A stretch of 64,000 nucleotides of DNA from Microcoleus sp. Aus8_D1 (GCF_036702645.1 NZ_JAUBUO010000016.1:28186-92185), one strand, 5' to 3'. Counted from the stretch's first letter, positions 1 through 49,713 are shown. The notes: generated by a model not told the origin, from the letters alone. A program made the numbers and translations.

Positions 1-1
1 T

Positions 2-544
2 TTGGAATCATTTAAACAGCTTTTAGCAGAATGTGGCTGGATTATTCCATTTCAGAAAGTTTGCTATGTGTGCGATCGCCCAACCAAACTCTCCCTCGAC
101 AGCGAGTACCGCCTGCACGCAGAAGCCGAAAGCGCGATCGAATTTAGCGACGGTTACAAACTCTATTCCTACCACGGCGTAACTTTGCCCGAAAAATACG
201 GACAAGTTCACCCCAGTCAATGGGAAGCTACCTGGATTTTAGCAGAAGACAATGCTGAATTAAGGCGAGTCTTAATTCAGGGAATTGGCTACGCCCGAAT
301 TTGCCAAGAATTGCAAGCAACAGATTTAGATACTTGGCAAGAATACACGCTGCTAAGAATTGATGTTGATATTGATGGCTTCAATCCACAGGAAAAAGAG
401 CCAATTTATCTGTTAAAAATGACTTGTCCGAGCACCGGATTCATTCACGCTTTGCGGGTTCCGCCTGATATGCAATCTGCAAGGGAAGCGATTCGCTGGG
501 TAAATTGGGATGTCGATTATGAGGAGTTTTCGGTGCAAACTTGA
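2..544 (+). CDS. Partial (5'-truncated by window) member of a local paralog family; shared ~175-aa C-terminal domain of unknown function (CGWIxPxxxVCxVCxxP ... MTCPSTGFIHALRVPPD ... AIRWVNW)
   Basis: C-terminal 175 aa are nearly identical in motif order to the C-termini of ORFs 1274..2410 and 2580..4691; conserved Cys pairs; same strand, tandem. Confidence 0.6.
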   Translation: MESFKQLLAECGWIIPFQKVCYVCDRPTKLSLDSEYRLHAEAESAIEFSDGYKLYSYHGVTLPEKYGQVHPSQWEATWILAEDNAELRRVLIQGIGYARICQELQATDLDTWQEYTLLRIDVDIDGFNPQEKEPIYLLKMTCPSTGFIHALRVPPDMQSAREAIRWVNWDVDYEEFSVQT

Positions 545-876
545 AGTTTGGGGCGATAATAGTCACCAGTTTAAACCGCGATTCAAATTAACCGTAATTC
601 CTGTAGGGGCCCGTGAGCCAACAACCTCCAACTCCCACCGACAATCTACATAAACCCGCCCCCACCCAGCCGACTTTCTCGAAACTGGCATCAATTATAG
701 CATTTCTGTTTCCGTCGATCGCACTTTCACCCTCGAACCAAACCCCTGTCACTGTACCAAACAGTTATGGAATATGGTTTCTAGATCCCCTTGACGCTCC
801 TGTATTACCAATGTAGTATAAAATGGTGGTAGAAAAGCCCGATCGACAATACCAATCTCGGACGCACCAACAGGCC

Positions 877-943
877 TAGAAACCGGGTTTTTATCGAGAT
901 TAAAGGCTCGAATCGAGTATTTTCTCCAAAAACCCGGTTTCTG
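877..943. repeat. MITE-like hairpin element, family A (AGAAACCGGGTTTTT ... AAAAACCCGGTTTCT termini, ~67 bp)
   Basis: Seven copies in the window, in both orientations. Confidence 0.8.
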
Positions 944-993
944 ACTGCCCGTGCATCCCAGACAAACCAGCAAACAAAAATTAGAAAAAACCT

Positions 994-1287
994 ATGCAAC
1001 CGATCCGACAAGGCGACGTAATTCTCACCCCGGTACAGCAAATCGCAGGAGACAAAAAACCTCACCTCACCCTCGCCGAAGGTGAAGTCACGGGACATTC
1101 TCACCGCATCATTGAGGGACAAGCTGAACTTTACGAAAAAGACGGTACTCTGTACTTGCGAGTGCTTTCGCCCACAGCTTTATTGAGTCACGAAGAGCAC
1201 CGCGCGATCGCCATTCCTGAAGGTAATTGGATGGTGCGAATTCAGCGGGAATACGAGCCACAAGGTTGGCGGTATGTCTCAGACTAA
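994..1287 (+). CDS. Small hypothetical protein (97 aa), overlaps start of next gene by 14 nt (ATGTCTCAGACTAA)
   Basis: Clean ORF, protein-like composition, translational-coupling-type overlap with 1274..2410. Confidence 0.4.
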   Translation: MQPIRQGDVILTPVQQIAGDKKPHLTLAEGEVTGHSHRIIEGQAELYEKDGTLYLRVLSPTALLSHEEHRAIAIPEGNWMVRIQREYEPQGWRYVSD

Positions 1288-2410
1288 GGTTAAAAAACTT
1301 ACGCCAGCACAAGAAACTCAGATTCCAGTTTATCGCGAAAAGTGGAGGGCGAGATCGCTTTCCACAGGCCCGATCGCTCGATCGCACGCTGCGGAAACCA
1401 TTAAACTAGCTTACAGGGCGATCGGCTTCCCAGCACCAGAAATCATTTTTGTCGATCGTCCTTACCAAGCTGCGAATATCATCGCCAGCCACGCAGACAA
1501 ACCGAGAAGTCACCTCCGCAGCCAATTAGAAAGCAAACTGCGCTGCGAACTCGAAAAACAACTGCTAAGTTGTCTGCGCGGACAACTAGAAAGCCAGCTA
1601 AAACGTCAGCTACAAAATCAACTCGAAAATGAACTTTACACCCAACTGCAAAGCCAACTGTGGAGTCCCCTGCGCGAGCATTTAGCGATGGAAATAGCGA
1701 GCAAATTACCGAACGATTTGAGCGGACAGCGGGCGCGATATTTGCAGTACGCCCATCTCAACAAACAACTAGATAATTGCATTCAACCAGAGTTATGGGC
1801 TGGTAGCGGCAGTTTGTTAGATTTTTGCATTTCCGTGTTGAATTGCACCCACTCCTACGGCAATATCTGGACAATCTTTCAATCCCTTGTTAAGACTTGC
1901 GGCTGGATTTTTCCCTATGACAAAGTTTGTGTTGTGTGCGAAAAGCCGATCGTACTTTCCGCAGACAGCAACCACCGCCTCCACGCAGAAGCAGCACCAG
2001 CCGTACAATTTGCCGACGGTTTTGCAATTTACGCCTATCACGGCGTGATTTTACCCGAATGGTACGGCCGCCTGCACCCCCACGAGTGGCAGTCTAAATG
2101 GATACTCAAGGAACACAACGCAGAGGTTCGGCGGGCGTTAATTCAGGGCATCGGGTGCGATCGTATTTGTCAAGAACTAGCAGCCACAGAATTAGACACT
2201 TGGCAGGAATATACCCTATTAAAAATGGATTTTGAGGACGATTTCGATACCGCTGGGAACCCATTACCAGTTGTTTTGTTAAAAATGACCTGTCCGAGCA
2301 CAGGATTCATTCATGCGCTGCGAGTGCCTCCTGATGTGCGATCGGCTAAAGAAGCAATTCGCTGGGTAAATTGGGGAATAGAGCCTGACGAATTTTCTGT
2401 GCAAACTTAA
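1274..2410 (+). CDS. Paralog family protein: unique N-terminal region plus the shared C-terminal domain
   Basis: C-terminal ~175 aa alignable to 2..544 and 2580..4691 (VCVVCEKP...HAEAAPAVQFADGF...MTCPSTGFIHALRVPPDVRSAKEAIRWVNW). Confidence 0.65.
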   Translation: MSQTKVKKLTPAQETQIPVYREKWRARSLSTGPIARSHAAETIKLAYRAIGFPAPEIIFVDRPYQAANIIASHADKPRSHLRSQLESKLRCELEKQLLSCLRGQLESQLKRQLQNQLENELYTQLQSQLWSPLREHLAMEIASKLPNDLSGQRARYLQYAHLNKQLDNCIQPELWAGSGSLLDFCISVLNCTHSYGNIWTIFQSLVKTCGWIFPYDKVCVVCEKPIVLSADSNHRLHAEAAPAVQFADGFAIYAYHGVILPEWYGRLHPHEWQSKWILKEHNAEVRRALIQGIGCDRICQELAATELDTWQEYTLLKMDFEDDFDTAGNPLPVVLLKMTCPSTGFIHALRVPPDVRSAKEAIRWVNWGIEPDEFSVQT

Positions 2411-2460
2411 AACTCCCCAACCCTGTTTAACAAGTACAGTCCTCGACTCACCAAGATCCA

Positions 2461-2527
2461 AGAAACCGGGTTTTTTCGTTAATCTGCCGGCTGCATCGAA
2501 TAATCTTCGTAAAAAACCCGGTTTCTG
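2461..2527. repeat. Family A hairpin element
   Basis: agaaaccgggttttttcgttaatctgccggctgcatcgaataatcttcgtaaaaaacccggtttct. Confidence 0.8.
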
Positions 2528-2579
2528 GCCACCCGTGCGTAAGTCCTAGTCTGATATTCTCCTAATTTACAACAATTTT

Positions 2580-4691
2580 ATGTCAGAACAACAACCAAAA
2601 CCATCGATAACTTTCAACAGCTTTGCAGACTGGTGCTTGCACAAAGATAGCCTTTGTGAAGCAGCCAAACATACAGTTGAGGAACTGTTAAAGTGGGCGG
2701 GCACTTCTGACATTAATGAAGCGAACCAGATACTATCAAGTAAGAATAAACTAGACCTGCATGGCAATAAAATATCAGACCTCGCACCCCTGCAATCTTT
2801 GACTCATTTAGTTTATCTGGATCTGCATGGCAATAAAATATCAGACCTCACACCGCTGCAATCTCTGACTAATTTGACTTCGCTGTCTCTAAACCACAAT
2901 CAAATATCAGACCTTACATCCCTGCAATCTCTCACGAATTTGACTTCTCTGACTCTGTACAACAATAAAATATCAGACCTCACACCGCTGCAATCTCTGA
3001 CTAATTTGACTTCGCTGTCTCTAGACCACAATCAAATATCAGACCTCACATCCCTGCAATCTTTGACTAATTTGACTTCTCTGACTCTGGGCGAAAATAA
3101 AATATCAGACCTCACACCCCTGCAATCTTTGACTAATTTGATTTTGCTGTTTCTGAACCGCAATAAAATATCAAGCCTCACACCACTACAATCTCTCACG
3201 AGTTTGACTTCTCTGACTCTCGGCCACAATCAAATATCGGACATCACACCCCTACAATCTTTGACTAATTTGACTTTTCTGTCTTTGGGGCGCAATCAAA
3301 TATCAGACATCACGCACTTGCAATCTCTGACTAATTTGACTCGTCTTAATCTGGGCCAAAATCAAATATCAGACATCACAGACTTGCAATCTCTGACTAA
3401 TTTGACCGATCTGGTTCTCGATAGCGATCAAATATCAGACATCACGCACTTGCAATCTCTGACTACTTTGACTCGTCTTAATCTGGGCGAAAATCAAATA
3501 TCAAACATCACATTCCTGCAATTTCTGACTAATTTGACCGATCTGGAACTGCGCGAAAATCAAATATCAGATATAACATCCCTGAAATATCTGACTAATT
3601 TGACTTATCTGAATTTGGCAAACAATCCAATATCAGATATCGCACAGCTACAATATCTCACTCGTTTGAAGGATTTGACTTTAAACCTTACATCCCAACA
3701 CCAAGCTATCATCGAAATTTGCCGTCAAAAGTGGGGAATTCTCGCCAACTCTACCGAACCAATAAAGCACTCCAAAGCCTCAAATGCCCTTAAAACAGTC
3801 TGCGATTGTCTGGATTTAAAAACCCCAGAAATAACTTTTTGCAGTAGCCCGCATGAAGCGTACTTGCGATTAGAAAGGTCTAAACAAAAAGATAATGAGT
3901 TTAAAATACAACTCGATCGACGGCTCGATTCTGCTTGTTTTCCATTTACATTAATAACAGAATTATGGTTGGGACTTTCACGATCGCTCGAATGGGAAAG
4001 ACAGCTAGAACAACAATTGAAATCGATATTCCCCGACTTGTGGCGCGACTATCGGAGATACTCAACAATGTCGATCGTTACTCCAAAATACTTGGCTGAA
4101 GATCTAGCTATGGCTGAATTCTGTGTTTCTGCTTTGGGCATGATTCTTAAACCAGAGTCAGAAAAATTTTTTGAATCTCTAAAGCAGCTTTTAGTAGAAT
4201 GCGGCTGGATTTTTGCGTTTGAGAATGTCTGCTATGTGTGCTCGCGCCCCATCAAACTTTCCCTCGATCGCGAATACCGCCTCCATGCAGAAGGGGAAAG
4301 CGCGATCGAATTTGCCGACGGCTACAAAATCTATTCATATCACGGTGTAACATTACCTGAAAAATACGGACAAATTCACCCCAAAATTTGGGAAGCAAAA
4401 TGGCTTTTAGAGGAAGAAAATGCTGAACTCAGGCGAGTATTAATTCAAGGTATTAGTTATGCTAGAATTTGCTCCGAATTGCAAGCAACCGAATTAGATT
4501 CGTGGCAAGAATACACTTTACTACAAATCGAAAATGCTGATGTTGAGCCGATTCATCTGTTAAAAATGACTTGTCCGAGCACGGGATTCATTCATGCGTT
4601 GCGAGTGCCGCCGGATCTGACATCCGCCCGCGAGGCAATTCGCTGGGTAAATTGGGACATTGACTCAGACGAATTTTCCGTGCAAACTTGA
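2580..4691 (+). CDS. Leucine-rich-repeat protein (~20 tandem 22-aa LRRs, consensus NKISDLTPLQSLTNLTSLxL) fused to the shared C-terminal paralog domain
   Basis: 66-bp periodicity visible in DNA 2750..3660; internalin-like LRR consensus; C-terminal 175 aa match the paralog domain. Confidence 0.8.
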   Translation: MSEQQPKPSITFNSFADWCLHKDSLCEAAKHTVEELLKWAGTSDINEANQILSSKNKLDLHGNKISDLAPLQSLTHLVYLDLHGNKISDLTPLQSLTNLTSLSLNHNQISDLTSLQSLTNLTSLTLYNNKISDLTPLQSLTNLTSLSLDHNQISDLTSLQSLTNLTSLTLGENKISDLTPLQSLTNLILLFLNRNKISSLTPLQSLTSLTSLTLGHNQISDITPLQSLTNLTFLSLGRNQISDITHLQSLTNLTRLNLGQNQISDITDLQSLTNLTDLVLDSDQISDITHLQSLTTLTRLNLGENQISNITFLQFLTNLTDLELRENQISDITSLKYLTNLTYLNLANNPISDIAQLQYLTRLKDLTLNLTSQHQAIIEICRQKWGILANSTEPIKHSKASNALKTVCDCLDLKTPEITFCSSPHEAYLRLERSKQKDNEFKIQLDRRLDSACFPFTLITELWLGLSRSLEWERQLEQQLKSIFPDLWRDYRRYSTMSIVTPKYLAEDLAMAEFCVSALGMILKPESEKFFESLKQLLVECGWIFAFENVCYVCSRPIKLSLDREYRLHAEGESAIEFADGYKIYSYHGVTLPEKYGQIHPKIWEAKWLLEEENAELRRVLIQGISYARICSELQATELDSWQEYTLLQIENADVEPIHLLKMTCPSTGFIHALRVPPDLTSAREAIRWVNWDIDSDEFSVQT

Positions 4692-4757
4692 AAGCAAGCA
4701 GCAGCAATATAATTTCCGATTGTTAGTTCATGAGGATGATTTTAGGAGTTCTGATTT

Positions 4758-5321
4758 ATGGTAGTTGCAGCCAAGTTAACGATTTCTATTGCAGAGTTTT
4801 TGCAGTTGCCAGAAACTAAACCGGCAAGCGAGTACATCGACGGTCAAATTTCTCAAAAACCCATGCCGCAAGGAAAACATAGCAAACTTCAAGATGAGTT
4901 ATTGTCCGGGATTAATCGGGTGGGAAAACCTGGCAAACTAGCTCATGCTTTTCCCGAGTTGCGCTGTACGTTTGGGGGTCGATCGATCGTTCCCGATATT
5001 GCTGTTTTTGAATGGTCGAGAATTCCTCTTGATGAAGATGGAGAAATTGCCAACCGTATTGAAGTTGCACCGGATTGGATAATAGAAATTCTGTCACCAG
5101 ACCAATCTCCGAATCAGGTAATTAAGAAAATTGTTTTTTCGATTAATCACGGCACTAAATTGGGTTGGTTTGCAGATCCGGGCGATAAATCAGTAATAGT
5201 TTTTCAGCCGAATCAACTGCCTGAATTTAAATCAGATACCGATATTTTACCTGTTCTCAGCGTATTGGGTGATTGGCAGTTATCCGCAGCCGAGTTGTTT
5301 AGTTGGTTGAAGATTAATTGA
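4758..5321 (+). CDS. Uma2-family (DUF820) putative restriction-endonuclease-like protein
   Basis: N-terminal ISIAEFLQLPETKPASEYIDGQI and PD-(D/E)xK-like PDIAVF...EIxEILSP core typical of cyanobacterial Uma2 proteins. Confidence 0.75.
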   Translation: MVVAAKLTISIAEFLQLPETKPASEYIDGQISQKPMPQGKHSKLQDELLSGINRVGKPGKLAHAFPELRCTFGGRSIVPDIAVFEWSRIPLDEDGEIANRIEVAPDWIIEILSPDQSPNQVIKKIVFSINHGTKLGWFADPGDKSVIVFQPNQLPEFKSDTDILPVLSVLGDWQLSAAELFSWLKIN

Positions 5322-5334
5322 TTTAATAAGCCTC

Positions 5335-5660
5335 GCGCCGGACACGGCAGTGCCGTTTCCCTACTCGATTATGTTGTTAAAAGCAGAACTCCACGCCGGA
5401 CGCGGCAGTGCCGTTTCCCTACCCGATTATGTTGTTAAAAGCAGAACCCTACGCCGGACACGGCAGTGCCGTTTCCCTACCCGATTATGTTGTTAAAAGC
5501 AGAACCCCACGCCGGACGCGGCAGTGCCGTTTCCCTACCCGATTATGTTGTTAAAAGCAGAACCCTACGCCGGACACGGCACTGCCGTTTCCCTACCCGA
5601 TTATGTTGTTAAAAGCAGAACCCCACGCCGGACATGGCAGTGCCGTTTCCCTACAGAAAC
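5335..5660. repeat. Tandem direct repeat, ~60-bp unit x ~5.5 (cgccggacacggcagtgccgtttccctacccgattatgttgttaaaagcagaaccccA)
   Basis: Read directly; units abut with no spacers; a few point differences between copies. Confidence 0.9.
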
Positions 5661-6027
5661 TGCTATCTTGGCAAAAATCTTAATCCATAAAACTCTAATC
5701 AATATTCGCCCTGTGCCAGTTAAAATGGTGGAATGCCCAAACCATCAATTTAGCAAAAACTGTTAATAACATAAGAAAGAAGCCCACCTTCAGTCAAAGG
5801 TGAGCTAAATTCATGCCAGCTTACCGAAAGCTAGGCAATCGGGTCTCTAAGCCGATTGACGTAAAAGTTGAGAAAAAGATCCAAATCTTCCGGAAAAACT
5901 TATCCCCAACAATTAAGCTTCAGTTTACCCAAGCAGATCGGGAAAATTTCGCACACAGCGATGTTCCCCTGAAAGTGGGGAAATGCTGGGGCTTTATTTT
6001 GGCCAGCAATCCCCAATCTCAAAGGGT

Positions 6028-6873
6028 TTAAGCATCGTGATCGTGAGCGAAGCGGCGGAAGAGGAAGTCTAGGGCGTAGTTCCGCAAGTTGTAATATTCG
6101 GGATCTTCCATCATTTGTACCCGATCGCGCGGACGAGGAAAAGGAATCTCCAGAACCTCGCCAATCGTTGCTGACGGGCCGTTGGTCATCATCACGAGTC
6201 GATCGGCCAAAAACAGCGCTTCGTCAATATCGTGAGTAATCATCAACACCGTACAGCGGTGATCGTTCCAGATTTTCAGCAACTCTTCCTGCAATTCTTC
6301 CTTGGTAATTGCGTCCAAAGCACCGAAAGGTTCGTCTAAAATCAGCACCTTGGGGCGAATTGCTAAGGCGCGGGCGATGGACACCCGCTGCTTCATCCCC
6401 CCAGAAATTTGCGGAGGTCTTTTCTCAGAAGCTTCTGTCAGTCCCACCATCGCCAAATGCTCTTTGACGATCTCATTTTTCTCGGCCTGCGACTTCTCAG
6501 GAAATACAGCGTTAACGGCAATATAAACATTCTCAAACACCGTGCGCCAAGGCAGCAAAGCGTAACCCTGAAACACTACCATGCGATCGGGGCCCGGCTT
6601 CACAATCCGCTGCCCGTTAATCGACACTGTGCCGTCGCTGGGATGGCTAAAACCGGACACCATATTTAATAGTGTGGACTTCCCACAGCCCGAGTGTCCG
6701 ATCAGAGTAATAAACTCTCCCTCAGCTACGGTCAAGTTAACGTTTTCTAATGCCCTGTAACCGTTTGGATAGACTTTATAAACATTGTCCATCACCAAAA
6801 AAGGCTGGCGGCGATCTTTCTTAGACTTGATTTGGGTTTTGGTGCTTGTCTGGTTGACAGAAGTATTAATCAT
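6028..6873 (-). CDS. nrtD/cmpD: Nitrate/bicarbonate ABC transporter ATP-binding subunit (NrtD/CmpD type)
   Basis: Walker A GHSGCGKST, signature ISGGMKQRVSIARAL, Walker B ILILDEPFGALD; last gene of the A-B-C-D operon. Confidence 0.85.
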   Translation of the reverse strand: MINTSVNQTSTKTQIKSKKDRRQPFLVMDNVYKVYPNGYRALENVNLTVAEGEFITLIGHSGCGKSTLLNMVSGFSHPSDGTVSINGQRIVKPGPDRMVVFQGYALLPWRTVFENVYIAVNAVFPEKSQAEKNEIVKEHLAMVGLTEASEKRPPQISGGMKQRVSIARALAIRPKVLILDEPFGALDAITKEELQEELLKIWNDHRCTVLMITHDIDEALFLADRLVMMTNGPSATIGEVLEIPFPRPRDRVQMMEDPEYYNLRNYALDFLFRRFAHDHDA

Positions 6874-7087
6874 GGGTTTAGGAAATTGTTAGTGGGTGAT
6901 TAGCGATAGCAAATAATCGAGTTTTGAATGGTTAGTTTGTCGCCAGTGCTAAAGAGTAGACTTGAATTGCATAAATCTTTGATTGATAGATTAACCGCAT
7001 ATCTAGCAACCGATGAAAGTAGATTAGGACAAATTGTAGCGATCGTACATTTTTATTTGTGGTGGGGTTCGCGTCACAAATAAATAT

Positions 7088-7285
7088 CCCAAAATCCTGT
7101 AGGGGCGGGTTCACCAACTATCTATGAAACCCACAAACAATCTCATAAACCCGCCCCATCCACGCCATTATTTACATCAACATTTTACCAATAAATTCAC
7201 CGTACATTTTTATTGTTGGTGGGTGGGGGCGGGTTTATGAGCTCATTTATTTTTACCATAAATTGTTGGCGAACCCGCCCCTACC
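7088..7285. repeat. MITE-like element, family B (~195 bp, TIR GTAGGGGCGGGTTCACC ... GGCGAACCCGCCCCTAC), inserted between transporter genes C and D
   Basis: Near-identical full copy at 22162..22368; partial copies at 594..690, 17545..17650, 47700..47775. Confidence 0.8.
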
Positions 7286-7493: not shown

Positions 7494-9494
7494 CTAAGCA
7501 GCTCTGCGACGCGCATCCAGTACCACTTCAGCCATCGTGAAATCGCGTTTAATCGCCAGATTGTTGAGATAGCCGATCGGATCTTCAGCATTAAACACCG
7601 AGCCGTCAAACAAACGCAGAGAACCCCGATTGTAAGTAATGTCAGACATCCCCAACTCTCGCGCCGCCGTGCTGAAAGCGCCAACTCGTACCACCCGCTC
7701 CAGAATTTCCACCCAGTTGCGGGGGAACACAGTATCGCCCCAACGCGCCATCTGCACCATGTGCCATAGTTGTTCGGTGCGACTTGGGCGGTTCACCCCG
7801 TCTCCGGAAAACAAGTGGTGGGCGTATTCCCGCATTGGAGAATCCAGGTTGCAAACAGTAGTGCTGGGATCGCCGAGTTGGATGAAACTCTTATCAGTAG
7901 CGACGTATTCCCGTCCCGCGACAATCTCCGCAACCTCTTGGGAGTGGCTCGGATCGGCGCAATAGTGGGAAGCTTCCAGCAAAGCTTTGACTAGAGCAAT
8001 GTGAGTGTTGGGATAAGCATTCGCCCACTCTTCCCGAACTCCGAGAATTTTTGCAGGGTGTCCGGGCCACAGTTCCAAATCCGTCGCCACGGTAAAGCCG
8101 ACTCCTTCCATCGAGGCCCGCAAGTTCCAAGGTTCCCCAACGCAGAACCCGTCAATCGTGCCGCCTTGCAAGTCCACGATCATCTGGGCCGGAGGGAGGT
8201 TTTTGAGCAACACATCGCGATCGGGGTCAATGCCGCCGGAAGCTAGCCAGTAGCGCAGCAGCAGGTTGTGCATCGATGAAGGGTGAACGATGCCCATGCG
8301 GTGGGTTTGCGCGGGGGTTCTGCGCAGCATTTCTTTGAAATCTGCCAGAGTGTAAATCCCTTGGTCGTAAAAGCGCCGAGCTAGGGTAATTCCGTTGCCG
8401 TTGCGGCTCATGGTGAGGGCTGTAACGGTCGGTATCGGTTGCTCTTGGTGGCCTCCCAAGCTCAACCACATCGCCATCCCAGAGGGCATTTGCGCTGCGT
8501 CTAAGTAACCTGCGGCGATGCCGTCTACGATGCCGCGCCAGCTTGTTTCCCGCACGAGGTGGACTTCATCGAGTCCGTGTTTGGCAAATAAGCCTTTTTC
8601 TTTGGCGATCGCTAGGGGAGCGCAGGCTGCTAGGGGGATAAAGCCGAGTTCCAGGTTGACTTTTTCTAGGCCGTGGCGGGCGATCGCCGGTACTTTCCGC
8701 GCCCGCAGTTTTTTGACTCGTTTCTGCTGGTTGAGGAAGTAAATCATTTCGCTGCGCAGGGCGTAGTAGCTGGGGTGCGATACTACATCCATGCGTATGC
8801 GCGGGCGGGGGATGTCTACTTCGAGGATGCCGCCAATCTTCGATTCTGGGCCGTTGGTGAGCATGACGATGCGATCGCTCAGCAGCACCGCTTCATCCAC
8901 ATCGTGCGTTACCATCAGGGCGCTGATTTGGTACTCTTGGCAGATTTCCATCAACTTTTCTTGCAAGTTGCCGCGAGTCAAAGCGTCTAGGGCGCCGAAG
9001 GGTTCGTCTAAGAGTAACAGTTTGGGGCGCAGGGCCAAAGCACGGGCGATCGCCACGCGCTGTTTTTGTCCGCCGGAGAGGAGTGCCGGTTGCTTCTCGG
9101 CGTGGGGCGTCAAGCCCACCATGTCGATGTGTTTTTGGATGATGTCGAGGCGTTCGGCTTTACCTAAGCCGCTCATTACTGAGTCTACGGCGAGGGTAAT
9201 ATTTTCTCTGACAGTCCGCCAAGGTAGCAGCGAATAGTTTTGGAATACTACCATGCGATCGGGCCCGGGCTGGGTGATTCTTTGTCCGTCGATCGTCACC
9301 AATCCTTCTGTGGGCAAATCCAAACCTGCCACCATATTTAGGAGCGTAGATTTGCCGCACCCCGAGTGTCCGACTAAGGAGATGAATTCTCCTTTTTCAA
9401 TTTCTAAGTCGATGCCTTTGAGGGCTATGTATGTGCCGCCGTCTGATAAATTAAATGTTTTTCCGACTTGATCTACCGCAATCAAAACTGACAT
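7494..9494 (-). CDS. nrtC/cmpC: Nitrate/bicarbonate ABC transporter ATPase with C-terminal NrtA-like solute-binding domain (NrtC/CmpC type)
   Basis: N-terminal ABC ATPase (GHSGCGKST, LSGGQKQRVAIARAL, LLLLDEPFGALD) plus ~380-aa C-terminal domain homologous to the periplasmic binding protein. Confidence 0.85.
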   Translation of the reverse strand: MSVLIAVDQVGKTFNLSDGGTYIALKGIDLEIEKGEFISLVGHSGCGKSTLLNMVAGLDLPTEGLVTIDGQRITQPGPDRMVVFQNYSLLPWRTVRENITLAVDSVMSGLGKAERLDIIQKHIDMVGLTPHAEKQPALLSGGQKQRVAIARALALRPKLLLLDEPFGALDALTRGNLQEKLMEICQEYQISALMVTHDVDEAVLLSDRIVMLTNGPESKIGGILEVDIPRPRIRMDVVSHPSYYALRSEMIYFLNQQKRVKKLRARKVPAIARHGLEKVNLELGFIPLAACAPLAIAKEKGLFAKHGLDEVHLVRETSWRGIVDGIAAGYLDAAQMPSGMAMWLSLGGHQEQPIPTVTALTMSRNGNGITLARRFYDQGIYTLADFKEMLRRTPAQTHRMGIVHPSSMHNLLLRYWLASGGIDPDRDVLLKNLPPAQMIVDLQGGTIDGFCVGEPWNLRASMEGVGFTVATDLELWPGHPAKILGVREEWANAYPNTHIALVKALLEASHYCADPSHSQEVAEIVAGREYVATDKSFIQLGDPSTTVCNLDSPMREYAHHLFSGDGVNRPSRTEQLWHMVQMARWGDTVFPRNWVEILERVVRVGAFSTAARELGMSDITYNRGSLRLFDGSVFNAEDPIGYLNNLAIKRDFTMAEVVLDARRRAA

Positions 9495-9761
9495 GGTTTT
9501 CTTGCCTTTTTTGTAGGTTTGTCCTTGATTTTTTGATTAATGATTCTTGACTGTTGACTCTTAGCTGTTATCTTAGTGCCGATCGCTCAACTGCCATAAT
9601 AATATTGGTTCTATCGTTCGGACTTCAGTCTTCTTTAAAGACTGAGGAACCGTTTTTCGATAGCGAGGAATTCAGTTCTCTTACAAAGGTTAAGGACTGA
9701 AGTCATGACTGCGAACCAAATTGCAGTTATTTTACCGGACTTGATCTTAGCTTTTAGCTAA

Positions 9762-29305: not shown

Positions 29306-29375
29306 GAGAAACCCGGTTTATGGATGGATGCCTTGCTGTAAAGCCCAGGATTTTTCGTAGAAACCGGGTTTCTTT
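29306..29375. repeat. Family A hairpin element (variant termini)
   Basis: gagaaacccggtttatgg...tagaaaccgggtttcttt. Confidence 0.65.
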
Positions 29376-41507: not shown

Positions 41508-41574
41508 CAGAAACCGGGTTTTTGGAGAAAATCCTTCGCAGTAGTCCACCGATTAGGTAAAAACCCGGTTTCTT
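41508..41574. repeat. Family A hairpin element (opposite orientation)
   Basis: Interior is reverse-complement-like of the 40638 copy. Confidence 0.8.
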
Positions 41575-42122: not shown

Positions 42123-42187
42123 CAGAAACCGGGTTTTTCGCGTCTCCTTCGTTGTAGTCCACAGTAAGGGTCAAAAACCCGGTTTCT
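42123..42187. repeat. Family A hairpin element (opposite orientation)
   Basis: cagaaaccgggtttttcgcgtctccttcgttgtagtccacagtaagggtcaaaaacccggtttcttt. Confidence 0.8.
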
Positions 42188-49643: not shown

Positions 49644-49713
49644 CGAAACCGGGTTTTTTTTAGCATTTCAGCAGGCTGCAACGAAGTATTTAGGTAAAAA
49701 AAACCGATTTCTG
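49644..49713. repeat. Family A hairpin element (degenerate right arm) between HK and response-regulator genes
   Basis: cgaaaccgggttttttttagcatttcagcaggctgcaacgaagtatttaggtaaaaaaaaccgatttctg. Confidence 0.7.

Follow-up and report, generated by a model that had tools for sequence, protein, structure and literature searches.

A DUF6745 paralog array in Microcoleus and the small partner protein it shares with phages

A 64,000-nucleotide stretch of the Microcoleus sp. Aus8_D1 genome (NZ_JAUBUO010000016.1, 28186-92185), hereafter the window, begins with five plus-strand genes within positions 1-5400. Three of them encode proteins that end in the same domain of unknown function, DUF6745 (Pfam PF20530), and a fourth is a 97-aa open reading frame (ORF) that runs into the second of these three. 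The 97-aa ORF is the conserved partner of the DUF6745 family, and the whole two-gene unit is shared with phages; the first-pass annotation of this DNA missed both points. The best explanation of the locus as a whole, to which we give roughly an even chance, is a chromosomal array built on this two-gene unit, flanked by paralogs fused to leucine-rich repeats (LRRs) and acting in phage-host conflict.

Domain architecture and the small partner protein

The first of the three genes, ORF1 (2..544, + strand), is open to the window edge and therefore cut, as the first-pass annotation recognized. Its visible part encodes the C-terminal 180 aa of a DUF6745 protein (PF20530 E = 8.6e-26, 90.9 bits). ORF2 (1274..2410, + strand) encodes the core DUF6745 protein of 378 aa and is paired with the small ORF (PF20530 E = 2e-28, 99.5 bits). 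ORF3 (2580..4691, + strand) encodes a 703-aa LRR-DUF6745 fusion (LRR_4 E = 1.3e-58; PF20530 E = 3e-24, 85.9 bits). The claim that three consecutive plus-strand genes share a C-terminal domain is therefore borne out, with E values of 1e-24 to 1e-28 and scores of 86-100 bits against a curated gathering threshold of 27 bits (Pfam PF20530, PHROG phrog_31813). The C-termini of the three proteins are 63-80% identical over ~180 aa, with >100 invariant columns. The shared similarity is a full, alignable domain far beyond chance, not a scatter of short motifs. It had been described as novel, a claim that fails because the domain is already catalogued as PF20530/DUF6745 and close Microcoleus orthologs already carry the annotation "DUF6745 domain-containing protein". 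A comparison of the paralogs, proposed as a check, gave ratios of nonsynonymous to synonymous substitution (dN/dS) of 0.15-0.20 for the C-domain at near-saturated dS (0.9-1.8), which indicates that the paralogs are old and under purifying selection. Close relatives are Microcoleus/Oscillatoriales genomes, with protein identity of up to 90%. The 64-kb window holds no DUF6745 copy beyond ORF1, ORF2, and ORF3.

The first-pass annotation took the constant part of these proteins to be a C-terminal domain of ~175 aa. It is larger. Residues 4-378 of ORF2 align with residues 361-703 of ORF3 at 41% identity (BLASTP, E = 3e-89), so that ORF3 contains a complete ORF2-like module (3660..4688, + strand) with its DUF6745 domain at aa 523-700 (nt 4146-4679), and cyanobacterial homologs of ORF2 align over 100% of its length. 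The shared unit is thus a whole protein of ~340 aa in three parts: an N-domain of ~70 aa, a helical spacer with a period of four residues (Lxxx)n, and the DUF6745 C-domain. In ORF2 these parts lie on the plus strand at 1274..1489 (approximately aa 1-72, with the motif LTPxQ...W...P...P), at 1502..1717 (18 tetrads, predicted helical), and at 1880..2398 (aa 203-375, Pfam coordinates). The PF20530 model is confined to ~200 aa at the C-terminus; its definition includes neither the N-domain and period-4 spacer nor the LRR fusions, and the partner gene is likewise outside it. A seven-way alignment across phyla, which includes cyanobacteria, the Microcystis phage Ma-LMM01, an environmental siphovirus, and a Mycobacterium prophage, retains all three parts, and the middle spacer varies greatly in length. 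Conservation of the ORF2 N-terminus accordingly extends from cyanobacteria to phages. The view that a variable N-terminus sits on a constant C-terminus survives in that a constant module can carry an added N-terminal LRR solenoid; it does not hold for the N-terminus of ORF2 itself.

Conserved positions mark both ends of the DUF6745 protein. In the N-domain, L9, W24, A39, P55, and P63 are invariant among cyanobacterial, phage, and actinobacterial members. In the C-domain, H237, D248, H256, G257, N282, and R286 are invariant across 50 diverse members, at least 90% of which also retain E284, R287, and D231. The resulting polar constellation comprises H237, D248, H256, N282, E284, R286, and R287. 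A cysteine-based zinc site (C209, C219, C222, and C340; the CxxC blocks) was considered and rejected, as these cysteines are not conserved outside cyanobacteria. The AlphaFold2 (AF2) model of ORF2 has a predicted local distance difference test score (pLDDT) of 86.3 and a predicted template modeling score (pTM) of 0.78, and the domain has no detectable relative among solved structures. Lenient Pfam scans of 50 C-domains and 55 small proteins returned only sporadic cupin or DUF4399 matches. None of the proteins has a signal peptide or a transmembrane (TM) segment (maximum 19-residue Kyte-Doolittle hydropathy, 1.5). This lack of a secretion signal or membrane segment suggests that the DUF6745 unit is presumably cytoplasmic, and it makes the anchor role once suggested for the C-domain unlikely.

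The partner gene (994..1287, + strand) encodes a His-rich, predicted all-beta protein of 97 aa that belongs to no Pfam family. It overlaps the start of ORF2 by 14 nt and is conserved together with it, in agreement with the earlier claim of coupling to the second paralog. The small-protein family has at least 939 homologs, and no Pfam model matched it even at E = 10. Residues H37, H69, and D97 are invariant among 55 diverse members, and 90% or more of these members retain Q6, G7, E31, H66, G77, and E86, giving a polar constellation of H37, H66, H69, E31, E86, and D97. The AF2 model is an all-beta fold of eight strands with no helix-turn-helix (HTH) or ribbon-helix-helix (RHH) element, with a best pLDDT of 78.6 that was reached by only one of five models. 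The C-terminal tail (residues 86-97; window 1249-1284; consensus QREYxPEGxRxVxD) is one of the best-conserved stretches of the protein, yet its pLDDT in the model is below 50. A conserved segment of low pLDDT is often the sign of a partner-binding peptide. The cupin superfamily may be the nearest comparison for the 97-aa protein, a small beta protein with a GHxH motif and further invariant His/Glu residues. Weak Cupin_2 or MPI_cupin matches occur in 3 of the 55 small proteins, and one database member carries the source name "DUF4437 domain-containing protein".

The pairing was quantified in cyanobacterial and viral sequences. In cyanobacteria, the small gene lies beside DUF6745 in 44 of 80 loci, always adjacent, and there is never more than one small gene per locus, even where two to five DUF6745 domain matches occur. 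The other 36 loci have DUF6745 with no small gene within 8 kb. Among viral contigs found through DUF6745, the small gene is present on 72 of 80, in direct same-strand adjacency on 59 (upstream in 26, downstream in 33); on six of the eight contigs that lack it, DUF6745 lies at the contig edge. The reciprocal scan, seeded with six small-protein sequences, found DUF6745 on 72 of 80 contigs, with six more small genes at contig edges. On the two remaining IMG/VR contigs, L216 and L235, the small-protein homolog has flanks longer than 1.3 kb in both directions, yet no DUF6745 C-domain was detected; no other viral contig is of this kind, and these two may hold a very divergent partner or a different one. 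The two families also diverge together (r = 0.79; Mantel test, 0/2000). One further viral locus is of a different kind. In L170 (IMG/VR contig 3300008120_000681, 5770-6855), the initial ~75 aa of a small-protein homolog (QGD...HSETGHNH) run in frame, within one ORF, into a DUF6745 protein at its LTPEQ start. The small protein lacks its second half, and the ORF is either a fusion generated by deletion or a natural "Rosetta stone".

Phage copies, tetrapeptide spacers, and LRR fusions

The unit is found on phages and in actinobacteria as well as in cyanobacteria. ORF2 aligns end to end with gp174 of Ma-LMM01 (378 aa; 26% identity, E = 1e-35), and gp175, directly upstream of gp174, is 39% identical to the 97-aa protein. 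The gp175/gp174 pair, both annotated as hypothetical proteins, is therefore a true homologous pair of the small ORF and ORF2. Unlike the pair in the window, it belongs to the replication module of a lytic myovirus and has neither a tetrapeptide spacer nor LRR paralogs. In the M. abscessus prophage prophiGD102-1, gene 37 (small) precedes and overlaps gene 38 (DUF6745), and the pair also occurs at a prophage-like Nocardia locus and at a Streptomyces locus. At the latter (Streptomyces griseochromogenes CP016279.1, L090), one called gene (5494-5973) holds the end of the N-domain and a period-4 spacer (xQVx/DQIR), the next (6001-6675) holds the C-domain, and a small-protein homolog follows downstream at 6745-7149; this DUF6745 gene is either split or frameshifted.

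The phage copies occupy the early replication/recombination region of their genomes. In Ma-LMM01 the unit neighbors genes for DNA polymerase, exonuclease, UDG, and a clamp loader, which are middle-class replication genes (PMC5780444). That transcriptome paper makes no mention of gp174 or gp175, and our search for literature on the two proteins found no relevant paper. The prophage unit neighbors a RepA-like initiator, ERF, and WhiB, and the neighbors on metagenomic viral contigs include YqaJ, RecT, ERF, DnaB, NinB, RusA, methylases, Lar, WhiB, KilA-N, and dCMP deaminase.

The spacer differs in state between phage and chromosomal copies. In ORF2, leucine or isoleucine heads 17 of the 18 tetrads, and the hydrophobic fraction is 0.94 in one phase versus 0.06-0.11 in the others; there is no 12-nt array at the DNA level, only a degenerate period-4 pattern. 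In the prophage protein the spacer is a near-perfect run of the tetrapeptides DQLG/DQLR/DQLW (46 copies of a 12-nt unit), and in the siphovirus protein it is one of SSLG/SSLE/SSLW (29 copies). Exact tetrapeptide runs of at least 40 aa are present in 34 of 51 dereplicated viral DUF6745 proteins (at least 80 aa in 23 of 51) and in 0 of 91 chromosomal cyanobacterial ones, 72 of which keep the period-4 hydrophobic pattern. Phage spacers are thus live, length-variable 12-nt arrays, whereas cyanobacterial spacers keep only the degenerate pattern.

The sole characterized protein that we found with the layout of the phage copies is gp54 of mycobacteriophage Tweety. Its unique N- and C-terminal regions enclose 48 tetrapeptide repeats, compared with 26 and 15 in homologs (PMC2884959). 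Grouped here with Che8 gp57 and PMC gp51, it is a counter-defense protein against Phrann gp29/gp30, and changes in its tetrapeptide repeat number tune this activity, an effect known only for Tweety (PMC9262239). Tweety gp54 and the phage DUF6745 proteins have in common a long 12-nt (tetrapeptide) array between unique termini, with G/W/R-type alternation at one position, and a repeat number that differs widely between homologs. In temperate actinophages, both gp54 and the DUF6745 prophage copies map close to WhiB genes in the early region. The repeat residues differ, however (AAGS versus DQLG, SSLG, or Lxxx). Unlike the DUF6745 proteins, gp54 has a short C-terminal region and no small partner, and the cyanobacterial DUF6745 copies, unlike gp54, have only degenerate repeats. 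Homology was considered and rejected, as profiles of the N-domain, the C-domain, and the small protein found no match in the 33-44 kb region of Tweety (E > 0.2). A full-length DUF6745 profile did match the reverse-strand translation of the gene 54 repeat with E = 4e-16 (L252, 5979-6653, - strand). We treat this match as a low-complexity artifact, with the two 12-nt repeat families compositionally related at the DNA level. The resemblance may hint at how the unit works, by analogy, and not at family membership.

In ORF3 the LRR solenoid (2765..3689, + strand) precedes the complete three-part unit and consists of 14 units of 22 aa (aa 63-370) after an N-terminal cap, fewer than the ~20 repeats first counted; for 2765-3645, Tandem Repeats Finder reports a 66-nt period with 13.3 copies. 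At the DNA level, identity is 98% between units 2 and 4 and 95% between units 9 and 11, compared with ~61-89% for other pairs. These near-identical units point to recent duplications of two-unit (132-nt) blocks within the solenoid. The visible 180 aa of ORF1 are 89% identical to the C-terminus of LRR-DUF6745 genes of 576-580 aa that sit upstream of the pair in the closest relatives (L001, L023, and L007), which suggests that ORF1 is probably LRR-fused as well. The number of extra LRR-DUF6745 copies next to the pair ranges from zero to three among close Microcoleus relatives. When N-terminal fusions were surveyed across the family, as had been proposed, 10 of 34 long members carried LRRs and 3 carried pentapeptide repeats. 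The C-domains of paired, solitary, and LRR-fused proteins fall mostly into separate clusters.

The LRR unit of ORF3 is of the same 22-residue type as that of Listeria class 1 internalins, and ORF3 gives strong LRR_4/LRR_8 matches and partial matches to internalin models. Against the class 1 internalin models (NCBIfam NF033189 and related), the best ORF3 score is 248.8 bits with a cutoff of 1600, and the scores overall are 6-40 times below the cutoffs. ORF3 has no hydrophobic N-terminus or signal peptide, no immunoglobulin (Ig)-like inter-repeat region, and no LPXTG or GW anchor. Unlike those of internalins, its LRRs are fused to a cytoplasmic phage-type module, and its C-terminus is DUF6745.

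Chromosomal setting and repeat elements

On cyanobacterial chromosomes, the unit lies among housekeeping genes in lineage-specific synteny. In the window, the minus strand 3′ of the array carries nrtD, nrtC, nrtB, and an nrtA-like gene, followed by a P-type Ca-ATPase gene; elsewhere the flanking genes are topA, which adjoins the Nostoc pair, or ATP-sulfurylase, together with recurrent Uma2 genes. A conserved third partner gene was considered and rejected, since the neighbor census returned lineage synteny (ATP-sulfurylase, topA) and the recurrent Uma2 genes in largely orthologous contexts. The fifth gene of the array region (4758..5321, + strand; PF05685 E = 1e-33) is itself a Uma2-family gene encoding a putative PD-(D/E)XK nuclease, and it matches the PADLOC candidate family PDC-S03. 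Uma2 genes likewise flank DUF6745 genes in L001 (6586-7167), L004 (5115-5927), and L008 (12894-13457), and a DUF2887 gene replaces Uma2 in one locus. Of the 119 flanking ORFs counted in related loci, 13 are Uma2 genes. Because many of the 13 occupy orthologous contexts, both the enrichment and the association of the window gene with the array are uncertain. In L001, a DUF6887/DUF6888 pair (9119-9501, - strand) separates the small ORF from the upstream LRR-DUF6745 gene, as it does in the closest relatives. In the corresponding spacer of the window (545-993, ~450 nt), no DUF6887/DUF6888 genes are listed; remnants were not searched for.

A sigma-70-like element, TTGACG-N17-TAGTAT (791..819, + strand), was located by a consensus scan and is the putative promoter of the operon of the small ORF and ORF2. 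Its TTGAC and TAGTAT/TATTAT hexamers are conserved in 13 of 13 aligned Microcoleus-type loci. Between this element and the small ORF lies a leader insertion of ~105 nt (838..945, + strand) that is absent from 12 related loci. It contains a hairpin with perfect 15-bp arms (878-892 / 928-942) whose predicted RNA fold has an energy of -46.7 kcal/mol (z = -6). A role for this hairpin as a conserved regulatory element was rejected, the insertion being specific to this strain and no part of the conserved unit.

The leader hairpin is one copy of a dispersed element of ~65 nt with arms AGAAACCGGGTTTTT / AAAAACCCGGTTTCT, found at window positions 878-942, 2461-2526, 29307-29373, 40639-40704, 41509-41573, 42124-42187, and 49644-49712. 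The second copy (2461..2526) lies in the spacer between ORF2 and ORF3, with exact arm matches at 2461-2475 and 2512-2526. In total, 17 arm matches occur in the window versus 0.23 expected by chance, and the element looks like a MITE-like (miniature inverted-repeat transposable element) repeat. A separate 58-nt tandem repeat with 5.5 copies at 95% identity (5336-5654) lies between the Uma2 gene and nrtD. Each unit has a palindromic GGACACGGCAGTGCCGTTTCC core, and the array is not CRISPR-like because it has no unique spacers.

Function and significance

In the mechanism that we propose, the small protein and the DUF6745 protein would act as a complex in the cytoplasm. The small protein may bind a metal, and the conserved tail at its C-terminus, unstructured in the model, probably docks on the DUF6745 protein. 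The C-domain would carry an enzymatic or effector site, and the spacer would set the distance between it and the N-domain. That such a unit acts in phage-host conflict is a proposal we rate at somewhat less than even. On phages, it may serve in counter-defense or host take-over, and in cyanobacteria it would be a domesticated, possibly defensive version. The LRR paralogs would then be specificity variants that draw on the one small protein in trans and contribute target recognition. More tentatively, and in our judgment with the odds leaning clearly against it, the unit may be an undescribed, widespread conflict system of two folds without solved relatives. In phages, a hypervariable tetrapeptide spacer would tune it against host defenses as in Tweety gp54, and the unit would have been domesticated by filamentous cyanobacteria and, in Microcoleus, fused to LRRs to give an expandable, cytoplasmic, receptor-like array sharing one catalytic or metal-binding subunit.

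Several observations weigh against our main explanation. Tweety gp54 is not homologous, so the conflict reading rests on similar layout and genome position. The cyanobacterial copies sit among housekeeping genes with stable synteny, a setting equally compatible with a cellular housekeeping role and with defense. The 36 cyanobacterial loci of 80 without a small gene indicate that the partnership is not strictly required in cis, and the ideas of a metal site and a docking tail are weakly founded because only one of the five small-protein models reached a pLDDT of 78.6. NCBIfam and PADLOC give no functional assignment; PADLOC-DB v2 returned a spurious low-complexity match for ORF2 only (E = 0.002) and none for the small protein or ORF3.

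A reading that overlaps with ours treats the proteins as stand-alone sensor-effectors, in which DUF6745 would be a common effector or anchor, the variable N-terminal modules such as LRRs would be the sensors, and the 97-aa ORF would be incidental. It accommodates the recurrence of LRR and pentapeptide-repeat N-terminal fusions in the family, the mostly separate clustering of LRR-fused, paired, and solitary C-domains, and the variation in LRR paralog copy number between close relatives. An incidental small ORF is, however, hard to square with the ~90% reciprocal co-occurrence of the small ORF and DUF6745 on viral contigs. The N-terminal ~190 aa of ORF2 are, moreover, conserved and present in ORF3, so the N-terminus is not simply variable, and the proteins have no membrane anchor or signal peptide. 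We consider this explanation rather unlikely.

The early-region address of the phage copies raises a different explanation, that the unit is an accessory enzyme of phage DNA replication, recombination, or nucleotide metabolism, with a DNA-related housekeeping role in cyanobacteria. Phage units lie among genes for DNA polymerase, exonuclease, UDG, clamp loader, RecT, YqaJ, DnaB, RusA, NinB, dCMP deaminase, and methylase; the prophage unit adjoins the RepA-like initiator and ERF, the Ma-LMM01 neighbors are middle-class replication genes (PMC5780444), and topA adjoins the Nostoc pair. The invariant His/Asp/His/Asn/Glu/Arg/Arg set would suit a phosphate-handling active site. However, the early regions of temperate phages also gather accessory and anti-defense genes, so position alone does not decide the matter. 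Hypervariable tetrapeptide spacers and copy-variable LRR arrays would also be unusual for core replication factors, and no nucleic-acid-binding or nuclease fold was detected. On balance, we judge this role unlikely.

The pair could also be a toxin-antitoxin or abortive-infection system in which the DUF6745 protein is the toxin and the small protein its antitoxin. In favor are the overlapping two-gene operon, its presence in several copies on chromosomes and prophages, and the frequent proximity of Uma2 or DUF2887 genes. The details fit such a pair poorly. Gene order is variable (26 small genes upstream and 33 downstream in viral loci), the model of the small protein has no DNA-binding fold, and PADLOC gives no match. 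Unlike typical antitoxins, the small protein shows conservation equal to or above that of its partner (73-96% versus 45-90% identity). In addition, a small gene is missing beside 46 of the 94 DUF6745 domains that were classified in the cyanobacterial loci, a situation that would be hard to tolerate for a toxin. We regard this assignment as improbable. An internalin-like LRR adhesin, secreted or at the cell surface and held by an anchoring domain at its C-terminus, is hardly credible: the 22-aa LRRs do score against internalin models, but far below the family cutoffs (249 bits versus 1600), the protein lacks a signal peptide, a TM segment, and a sorting signal, and the C-terminal module is common to cytoplasmic phage proteins.

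DUF6745 is a large family, with 7,865 clusters at 50% identity in an exhaustive search, distributed over cyanobacteria, actinobacteria, and their phages. A literature search on DUF6745, PF20530, IPR046633, and the PHROG identifiers returned nothing. We found no description of the partner family, the phage origin of the unit, the three-part architecture, the live versus fossil tetrapeptide spacers, or the LRR arrays. The family now has a testable shape: a two-protein unit with defined invariant residues, an early-region address on phages, and a spacer of the repeat kind shown to tune counter-defense in one mycobacteriophage. Mycobacterium prophages and Microcystis phages provide tractable homologs. 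Should the conflict reading prove wrong, the absence of solved relatives for either protein would still make the pair a well-defined structural-genomics target. If it proves right, the unit would be a new phage-host module and would explain the LRR gene arrays in bloom- and crust-forming cyanobacteria.

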